This document shows positions 11,436 through 11,846 of a stretch of 64,000 nucleotides of DNA, piece after piece. The DNA comes from Botryllus schlosseri (lineage: Eukaryota). A model generated the notes under the pieces. That model was not told the origin of the DNA, did not search any database, and was given only the letters and a program-made list of their open reading frames with translations. Each line of letters opens with the position of its first letter. The stretch's first letter is position 1. Position numbers and translations under genes: made by a program. Location: positions 7,938,001 through 8,002,000 of the forward strand of contig CM119371.1 of assembly GCA_051294905.1 (NCBI GenBank), in the 5' to 3' direction.

Positions 11436-11846
11436 ATGGCTAAGGACGCGCGAAGACTCATTTTGAAAAAACGTTTGAAGGATCATCTTACCAAATTGAA
11501 AACTTTACGGAGGGCTAAAAACCCCGAACGTATTCAGTTATTGAAGCATAAGGAATTTGTCGCTAGTGTGTGCGAGTGTCTTCGAAACCTGGTGTCGGGC
11601 GATGTACCTATTTCTAAAGCAAGAAAATCTAAATTGAAAAAGCACAAATCCAGTATACGGAAGGTCCTGTGTTGCAAAACTCAAAAAGGCAGGCGCAAAG
11701 TTTTGCAAAGGGGTGGCTTTCTTTCGGGTAAATACGTGTAACTTTAATTCAATACTGTATCTAACGTTATTCCGTTCCTAGCCATTTTGAGTGCCGCTAT
11801 TCCGATACTGGGAAGCCTCTTGGGCGGACTGACGAGAAATGCGTGA
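11436..11846 (+). CDS. Basic virion protein with C-terminal amphipathic helix; spliced, join(11436..11727,11782..11846), 118 aa
   Basis: Removing the GT-AG intron 11728-11781 gives ...LQRGGFLSAILSAAIPILGSLLGGLTRNA*, the QxGGFL + Gly/Leu helix I recall from Polinton small virion proteins. Confidence 0.8.

Follow-up and report, generated by a model that had tools for sequence, protein, structure and literature searches.

The gene described here lies in a Polinton/Maverick (adintovirus-like) element of Botryllus schlosseri, within a stretch of 64,000 nucleotides (nt) of the forward strand of contig CM119371.1 (assembly GCA_051294905.1, positions 7,938,001 to 8,002,000)—hereafter the window, from whose first letter all coordinates are counted. 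This gene, of the GasderminX type known from adintoviruses, is interrupted at 11728–11781 of the forward strand by a 54-nt segment, which is very probably a true U2-type spliceosomal intron. The judgment draws on sequence comparison: the proposed splice sites are the best pair by profile, near-identical copies carry them unchanged, diverged lineages keep the intron at the same site and in the same phase, and a further lineage, D, bears the gene without it. Beyond the intron itself, we are moderately confident of a wider reading, in which the intron has long been kept and is removed constitutively, splicing joins a basic domain to a tail resembling that of adenovirus precursor protein X (pX), and a protease cut after a Gly-Gly (GG) motif frees this tail as a peptide.

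In molecular terms, the host spliceosome would remove the 54 nt and join a basic six-helix domain, which ends in ...Q-R-G-G-F-L-S, to a second exon of 21 codons. The latter would supply the most conserved part of the family—a pX-like, hydrophobic C-terminal helix of about 24 residues. The resulting protein of 118 amino acids (aa) would most likely be a virion or core precursor, which the element's own clan-CE protease would cut after the invariant GG. The products of this cleavage would be the basic domain and, as a free peptide, the hydrophobic part, which starts with F-L-S and might insert into membranes. Splicing of the intron is most likely constitutive, and unspliced RNA would yield the tail-less product of 101 aa alone.

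The anatomy of the gene was read directly from the sequence. Exon 1 (11436–11727, forward strand) comprises 97 codons plus one base and ends in ...VLQRGGFLS. The intron opens with the donor GTAAAT, whose GT stands at 11728, and closes with the pyrimidine run TTATTCCGTTCC followed by TAG, the AG being positioned at 11780–11781. In between, a branch-site-like CTAAC occupies 11761–11765, so that the branch A precedes the final base of the intron by 17 nt. The interruption lies three codons past the GG, at the border of two protein modules, and divides an Ala codon into G and CC (phase 1). Left in place, it contributes an in-frame TAA at 11739–11741, and the unspliced open reading frame (ORF; 11436–11741) ends in ...VLQRGGFLSGKYV (...QRGGFLSGKYV). 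Past the acceptor, exon 2 (11782–11846, forward strand) completes the split Ala codon and continues as ILSAAIPILGSLLGGLTRNA up to the stop TGA at 11844–11846; joined in silico, both exons encode the 118 aa. A preliminary description of this DNA, made from its letters alone, had proposed just such a 54-nt phase-1 intron (GTAAAT...CTAAC...TAG) with an in-frame TAA, and direct reading together with the translations confirms it.

Comparison with homologous proteins favors removal of these 54 nt. When exon 1 was compared with the full set of 1.84 billion representative proteins, 344 relatives emerged at E ≤ 1e-3. Among the 150 relatives listed, 131 carry a GG 14–45 residues from the C-terminal end, followed by a hydrophobic tail with a median length of 23 aa. 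One of them, P0005, ends without interruption in ...GGLLGAILSAAIPVLGSLIGGLVGRK, which is almost identical to the predicted exon-2 peptide. The splice sites themselves were assessed by scoring 113 GT..AG pairs (donors 11640–11789, acceptors 11700–11949, 25–300 nt apart) against a profile hidden Markov model of 88 homologues. The pair 11728/11781 comes out on top with 109.2 bits—followed by a runner-up with 97.6 bits—and gains 21.8 bits over the unspliced ORF (87.4 bits). With the intron taken out, the reading frame is open again and corresponds to that of uninterrupted homologues, both among database proteins and in lineage D of this genome; contiguity of the tail at the DNA level is given by lineage D, the database homologues being protein sequences. 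The alignment with intronless homologues thus speaks for the intron. It had also been supposed that ORF callers miss the splicing event, and indeed P0004, the sole close protein in the database, ends in ...GGFLSGK. Three other homologues, P0056, P0074, and P0079, likewise terminate 4–5 residues past the GG.

The genome of B. schlosseri itself (495 megabases) provides the second line of evidence. It contains 14 near-identical copies of the gene (lineage A, 94–100% identity), in all of which GT, CTAAC, and AG are intact. Exon 2 varies among them at two sites only, and both changes are synonymous in the spliced frame. One of the copies (L013/L026, G000:C11:4516693-4517206) is degraded: a 13-nt duplication lengthens its intron to 67 nt, and its exon 1 contains a TGA. 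Searching the genome with the protein gave at least 150 scored matches (the best 150 of 211 candidates), which fall into at least four diverged lineages. Lineages B and C show 61–64% and 52–55% identity to exon 1, respectively; lineage C is the most numerous and comprises several sublineages. In all 35 loci examined of lineages A, B, and C, the intervening segment sits at the same codon and in the same phase. The donor GT is retained in 34 of these, the exception being a degraded lineage-B copy with an AT donor (L030, G000:C1:20449727-20450002). A CTAA[CT] is found 18–21 nt upstream of the acceptor in each of seven lineage representatives, and the intron lengths of 54, 54, 54, 51, and 52 nt imply that the segment is not constrained to a multiple of three.

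The pattern of substitutions agrees with this picture. Intron identity between lineages (46–71%) is lower than exon-2 identity in all ten lineage pairs, lower than exon-1 identity in nine, and equal to it in one. Exon 2 of lineage A is separated from that of lineage B by 11 synonymous and two nonsynonymous codon differences, and the spliced frame alone is open and conserved. Lineage D, with 30–36% identity, aligns with exon 1 up to the GG (BLASTP E 1e-13) and has the intron in none of its nine loci; in seven of these, ...GGMFM[ST]L[IL]SSILP[VM]VTGLLGNLF[KR]K is encoded contiguously and intact. Introns of comparable shortness are also found in the host's own genes, each of three tubulin introns examined measuring 61 nt. 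By profile, lineages A–C, lineage D, and the exon-2 substitutions, the intron and the exon-2 tail of the preliminary description hence stand on comparative grounds.

Assignment to a family rests on translation, on the 344 database relatives, and on modeled structure. AlphaFold predicts the exon-1 domain as six helices (predicted local distance difference test, pLDDT, 87.6). The first-ranked match of this model in BFVD is GasderminX of Terrapene box turtle adintovirus (A0A5H3CT60), with a template modeling score of 0.74, a root-mean-square deviation of 2.2 over 90 columns, 28% identity, a probability of 1.00, and E 5.4e-3; a full-length homologue model retrieves the same entry on top (E 1.9e-5). 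These models place the gene in the GasderminX family of adintoviruses, which has an adenovirus-pX-like tail. The class was named by Starrett et al. (2021), whose account describes it as typically carrying a domain similar to adenovirus precursor protein X near the C terminus (PMC8502044). In line with this, the Pfam family Adeno_PX (PF05829) matches 25 of 89 family members on the stretch of GG plus tail (best E 1.6e-4), with no match for exon 1 of the window. The likeness to the C-terminal domain of cellular gasdermins was not reproduced in fold searches of the PDB: with the exon-1 domain, Foldseek found nothing at E ≤ 0.001 (best E 0.56) and no gasdermin, and VIA-align wide gave a best Z of 5.2, which is helical noise, and no gasdermin either. 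The family profile run against PDB sequences gave a best E of 0.35 for the helical domain. In the ESM Atlas, "PX protein" comes closest among the named clusters (0.78), which is a lead only. No relative was found by single-protein search in viral contigs (95 pattern matches) or metagenome contigs (592 pattern matches). A database protein of 579 aa from another source, P0051, fuses a Polinton-type DNA_pol_B_2 domain (E 6.8e-36) with a GasderminX-like C terminus that includes the GG tail. It probably represents read-through between neighboring genes, and this fusion places the GasderminX family next to a Polinton polymerase elsewhere, too.

The two modules of the protein differ strongly in character. 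Up to the GG, the net charge amounts to +25. The 24 residues that follow it reach a Kyte–Doolittle mean of 1.96 and, on the Eisenberg scale, a mean hydrophobicity <H> of 0.73 at a hydrophobic moment muH of only 0.29. High hydrophobicity at such a low moment marks the tail as transmembrane-like or fusion-peptide-like. The preliminary description had taken it to be amphipathic; this was not borne out, the helix being uniformly hydrophobic.

A putative protease site, L-Q-R-G-G-F, lies at 11703–11720 (forward strand) and follows the family motif [IL][ILV]-Q-[KRS]-G-G-F-L, with the cut expected after GG. In 89 aligned sequences, G93 and G94 are invariant, and Q91 and F95 are present in at least 90%. 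The pattern [ILMV]-Q-x-G-G occurs three times in the 15 ORFs of the element (4,435 residues), where 0.10 occurrences are expected, and none of 5000 shuffles reaches three; its carriers are the ORFs at 4543–6132, 10780–11400 (the ATPase), and 11436–11727. A related V-Q-x-G-x-G is found twice in the ORF at 15006–15377. On this sequence basis, [ILMV]-Q-x-G-G may be the site consensus of the element's protease. Clan-CE proteases generally cleave behind a Gly-Gly, and Gln-x-Gly-Gly forms the end of SUMO precursors. Adenovirus pMu, as reported in PMC7998265, is cut by the viral protease into residues 1–31, 32–50, and 51–79. Since the GG is invariant and the Q nearly so, since the element encodes a protease of apparent clan-CE type, and since adenovirus pMu is cleaved, a cut after GG in this protein is plausible.

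There are also observations that weigh against the reading of a constitutive intron and a cleaved tail. For the site, Q rather than a hydrophobic residue stands at position P4 in 121 of 131 family tails, which misfits the adenovirus protease consensus with its Met, Leu, or Ile at P4. The pattern [ILMV]-Q-x-G-G was chosen post hoc, and its three occurrences include those in the query and in the ATPase. For the relation to pX, all Adeno_PX scores remain below the Pfam gathering cut-off (best 22.0 versus 25 bits), and neither exon 2 alone nor two lineage-D proteins are matched. For the joined product, the protein collection holds no near-identical protein with the tail attached—the exon-1 query gave one match among two candidates, the truncated P0004—and a query with exon 1 of lineage C (11 candidates) gave none at E ≤ 1e-10. 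On the RNA level, three raw runs (X14, X18, and X10, with about 1.5–1.9 thousand million letters each) gave 0 reads on 10918–12537; spliced transcripts thus went unobserved, and these runs speak neither for nor against splicing. Finally, the donors of all lineages lack a G at +5, which would fit inefficient or regulated splicing rather than a constitutive event, and the hydrophobicity of the tail fits an uncleaved tail anchor equally well.

This last point leads to the serious rival of the cleavage model. Here, the intron is real, the C terminus forms a single-pass transmembrane helix that tethers the basic domain to a cellular or internal virion membrane, and the GG is a hinge. We consider this unlikely on balance, albeit with several arguments on its side. 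Beside the high Kyte–Doolittle mean of 1.96 over 20 residues, the low hydrophobic moment, and the Q at P4, the tail stands at the extreme C terminus, where one to four polar or basic residues follow it in most family members. AlphaFold moreover predicts the tail of the homologue P0005 as one continuous helix with a pLDDT of about 89–91. However, two invariant glycines flanked by a near-invariant Q and F are more than a hinge needs, the motif recurs in other ORFs of the element, and the adenovirus counterpart is cleaved—hence our preference for the cut after GG.

A different alternative elaborates the switch proposed in the preliminary description: splicing would be deliberately inefficient, and the balance of retention and splicing would set when the membrane-active tail is made. 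The translation of the next ORF might also be affected: the ATG of that ORF (11839) overlaps the stop of the GasderminX gene (11844–11846), which places the stop of spliced RNA atop this ATG, whereas unspliced RNA has its stop 98 nt before it. Lineages A, C, and D all retain this stop/start overlap. Several further features would suit such a gate. The donors read GTAAAT, GTGAAT, GTAAAA, GTAAAC, and GTATAA by lineage, none with a G at +5, whereas the branch site is a perfect CTAAC; an in-frame stop follows 3–12 codons after the donor in every intron-bearing lineage; the intron sits right on the module border; and it is kept in lineages down to 52% protein identity despite the existence of intronless relatives. 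Nevertheless, we regard regulated retention as rather improbable, as none of the findings calls for it. Chance alone would put a stop within 18 AT-rich codons, and the weakness of the donor can be gauged against no more than three host introns—all of them tubulin introns of 61 nt. Conservation of the intron does not need a regulatory role either, once the tail is essential. The elements copy themselves as DNA and offer no route for intron loss; an intron once gained is then simply inherited, and an essential tail would suffice for selection to preserve its splice signals. A stronger version of the idea treats splicing as a licence. The suboptimal mini-intron would let a toxic virion peptide form only by way of the host spliceosome, retention would give a harmless tail-less protein, and translation of the next gene might depend on splicing as well. 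This proposal, too, appears doubtful to us.

Two side observations concern the same stretch. The run X1 (121 million letters, of unclear kind and maybe DNA) contains a 2,610-nt contig with a depth of 25.2, which covers 10918–12537 in unspliced form with 16 differences and was not used as evidence. Its depth of 25 exceeds what is expected for low-coverage genomic DNA of 14 copies and might stem from unspliced transcripts or from DNA of an enriched source. Furthermore, an AG at 11835–11836, if taken as acceptor, would fuse exon 1 in frame with the next ORF into a product of 252 aa.

It is very unlikely that the AT-rich intron is kept because it doubles as promoter or leader for the downstream 154-aa ORF, with splicing merely rescuing the tail. 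In several lineages, TATA-like strings mark the beginning of the intron (GTATAAAG, GAATATATATG, and GTAAATAC), and no ATG occurs from about 11770 up to the ATG at 11839. Yet this is a pure reading of patterns, and the intronless lineage D keeps the gene order without such a spacer. Least probable of all is that a 54-nt insertion broke the gene, leaving the 101-aa ORF as sole product and the downstream "exon" as a decaying relic: the truncated P0004 as the only database protein of the lineage and the lack of spliced reads would agree with it, but no part is better conserved than exon 2, whose changes are mostly synonymous, the splice signals are kept while the intron interior drifts between lineages at 52–64% protein identity, its length varies (51, 52, and 54 nt, and 67 nt in one copy) without loss of these signals, and the intron-bearing lineages have many near-identical copies.

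The element that carries the gene spans 19,311 base pairs (bp) at 1523–20833 (forward strand). Its terminal inverted repeats (1523–1736 and 20620–20833) have arms of 214 nt that pair with 100% complementarity, and the direct repeat CAGGGT, a target duplication of 6 bp, flanks it at 1517–1522 and 20834–20839. Directly upstream of the GasderminX gene, a packaging ATPase of Pox_A32 type is encoded at 10780–11400 (forward strand; Pfam PF04665, E 2.2e-9). Downstream, the 154-aa ORF at 11839–12303 (forward strand), whose ATG overlaps the end of exon 2, belongs to no known family and has no Pfam or PHROG match. It is followed by an integrase with rve core and chromodomain at 12291–13295 (forward strand; PF00665, E 8.8e-13, and PF00385, E 3.8e-11). 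Inverted repeats, target duplication, integrase, and A32-type ATPase bear out the Polinton setting that had been assumed for the gene. The genome as a whole seems to carry a very heavy load of Polintons, with numerous matches of identical score, which suggests recent bursts.

Further downstream on the forward strand lie the presumed capsid and protease genes. The ORF at 15423–16700 probably encodes the double-jelly-roll major capsid protein, judged from a weak match (Pfam DJR-like_dom, E 0.029, 14 bits, below cut-off). The next one, at 16697–17158, probably encodes a clan-CE (adenain/Ulp-like) cysteine protease: among PDB sequences, it is most similar to the S273R cysteine protease of African swine fever virus (E 0.025), and its His and Cys motifs, GSHWV and ACGAH, align to GKHWV and ECGPY of S273R, with no Pfam match at E ≤ 0.05. 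Preceding the capsid gene, a 123-aa ORF (15006–15377, forward strand) contains a strongly amphipathic helix after ...VQRGHG (residues 40–57, muH 0.64, <H> 0.06) and has no match in Pfam or among PDB sequences. From its sequence, it may be a second candidate for a membrane-active virion peptide. The place of protein VI in adenoviruses is directly upstream of the capsid and protease genes. Given the high moment and this very position, the 123-aa ORF may be a better candidate than the GasderminX tail if the element has a classical lytic peptide at all. That it is kin to the "cupiennin" class of Starrett et al. is a guess.

In the left part of the element, the 1288-aa ORF at 6885–10751 occupies the place where a polymerase is expected; it has no Pfam match, no PDB sequence match, and a weak PHROG match to an endonuclease. 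A divergent PolB class is among those described by Starrett et al. (PMC8502044). Before it lies a 529-aa ORF (4543–6132, forward strand) with no family match. The element also bears three accessory genes of cell-death or ubiquitin type—a BIR (IAP-type) domain gene at 3513–3866 (reverse strand, Pfam E 5.6e-11), a caspase-like C14 peptidase at 17516–18256 (forward strand, E 1e-12), and an E2 ubiquitin-conjugating enzyme at 18949–19428 (reverse strand, E 4.2e-47). A retroelement adjoins the Polinton in the same window, represented by an ORF at 27691–29358 (reverse strand) with Pfam matches to reverse transcriptase and, weakly, to a zinc knuckle.

What does the intron add to the present knowledge of such elements? 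Intact vertebrate Mavericks are described as intronless in PMC8097293, and a spliceosomal intron kept in several proliferating animal Polinton lineages runs counter to this usual description. Its presence there implies that the elements are transcribed in the nucleus and depend on the splicing machinery of the host. Already in print are the GasderminX family with its pX-like tail (PMC8502044) and, in the context of dinoflagellate introners, introns of Polinton-like elements (PMC11957031). A literature search that included PMC8502044, PMC11161782, and bioRxiv 10.1101/2024.03.25.586562 yielded no conserved spliceosomal intron in a virion-module gene of an animal Polinton, in the passages of these sources that were consulted; their supplements may hold relevant gene models. 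The annotation of the gene can be corrected: ORF callers end it at ...GGFLSGK(YV) and thereby lose the most conserved segment of the family. Of most practical value might be the 11727–11782 junction as a marker. A read joining these positions can stem from processed RNA alone, and it hence separates genuine Polinton transcription from carry-over of genomic DNA, a distinction that is otherwise hard to draw in RNA data. Starrett et al. (PMC8502044) report the pX-like module attached to different carrier domains in different adintoviruses; as the intron lies on the border of this module, module exchange becomes testable. If splicing acted as a licence, a DNA virus-like transposon would here keep a toxic component of its virion under a switch controlled by the host spliceosome.

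Similar introns and similar tails are known from other systems. Dinoflagellate Maverick–Polinton-like elements contain introners, that is, multicopy intron-generating transposons, most of which were gained after integration according to the account of Gozashti and Corbett-Detig (2025, PMC11957031). Both cases share spliceosomal introns inside integrated Polinton-like elements. They differ insofar as here a single intron at one fixed site of one gene has been inherited across diverged lineages, a comparison made at this gene.

On the protein side, the tail invites an analogy with class I fusion peptides, as it is a hydrophobic segment rich in Gly, Ala, Leu, and Phe that would become a new N terminus after proteolysis; no kinship is claimed. 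The family profile ...GGFLgaLl... does align to ...GRFLGFLLG... of a "Fusion glycoprotein F0" (9ycf_A), an alignment that is not significant (E 0.44) and is of simple composition. Protein VI, the membrane-lytic factor of adenoviruses, might serve as a model for the mode of action only, being a virion protein that is processed by a protease and bears a membrane-active helix. The helix of protein VI is amphipathic, whereas the tail here is uniformly hydrophobic, and an amphipathic helix is found in the ORF at 15006–15377 instead.

Another related system is adenovirus pX/pMu (PF05829). Both proteins combine a basic stretch, a Gly-Gly, and a hydrophobic C-terminal segment, and the adenovirus precursor is cut by the viral clan-CE protease, with the C-terminal fragment 51–79 among the products (PMC7998265). 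The likeness has its borders, as PF05829 is a model of 42 positions that matches the GG plus tail only and leaves the six-helix N-terminal domain outside. Adenovirus pX is not known to have a counterpart of this domain or an intron within its coding sequence. Position P4 differs as well, with Gln here versus Met, Leu, or Ile in the adenovirus consensus.

The nearest relative is the adintovirus GasderminX protein (A0A5H3CT60) itself. Both are about 110–120 aa long, share the helical fold and the pX-like hydrophobic C terminus, and are encoded within a Polinton or adintovirus together with integrase, packaging ATPase, and—probably, in the present element—an adenain-type protease. The text of PMC8502044 contains no "splic" and one unrelated "intron". 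In the B. schlosseri gene, by contrast, a 54-nt intron stands between the helical domain and the tail.

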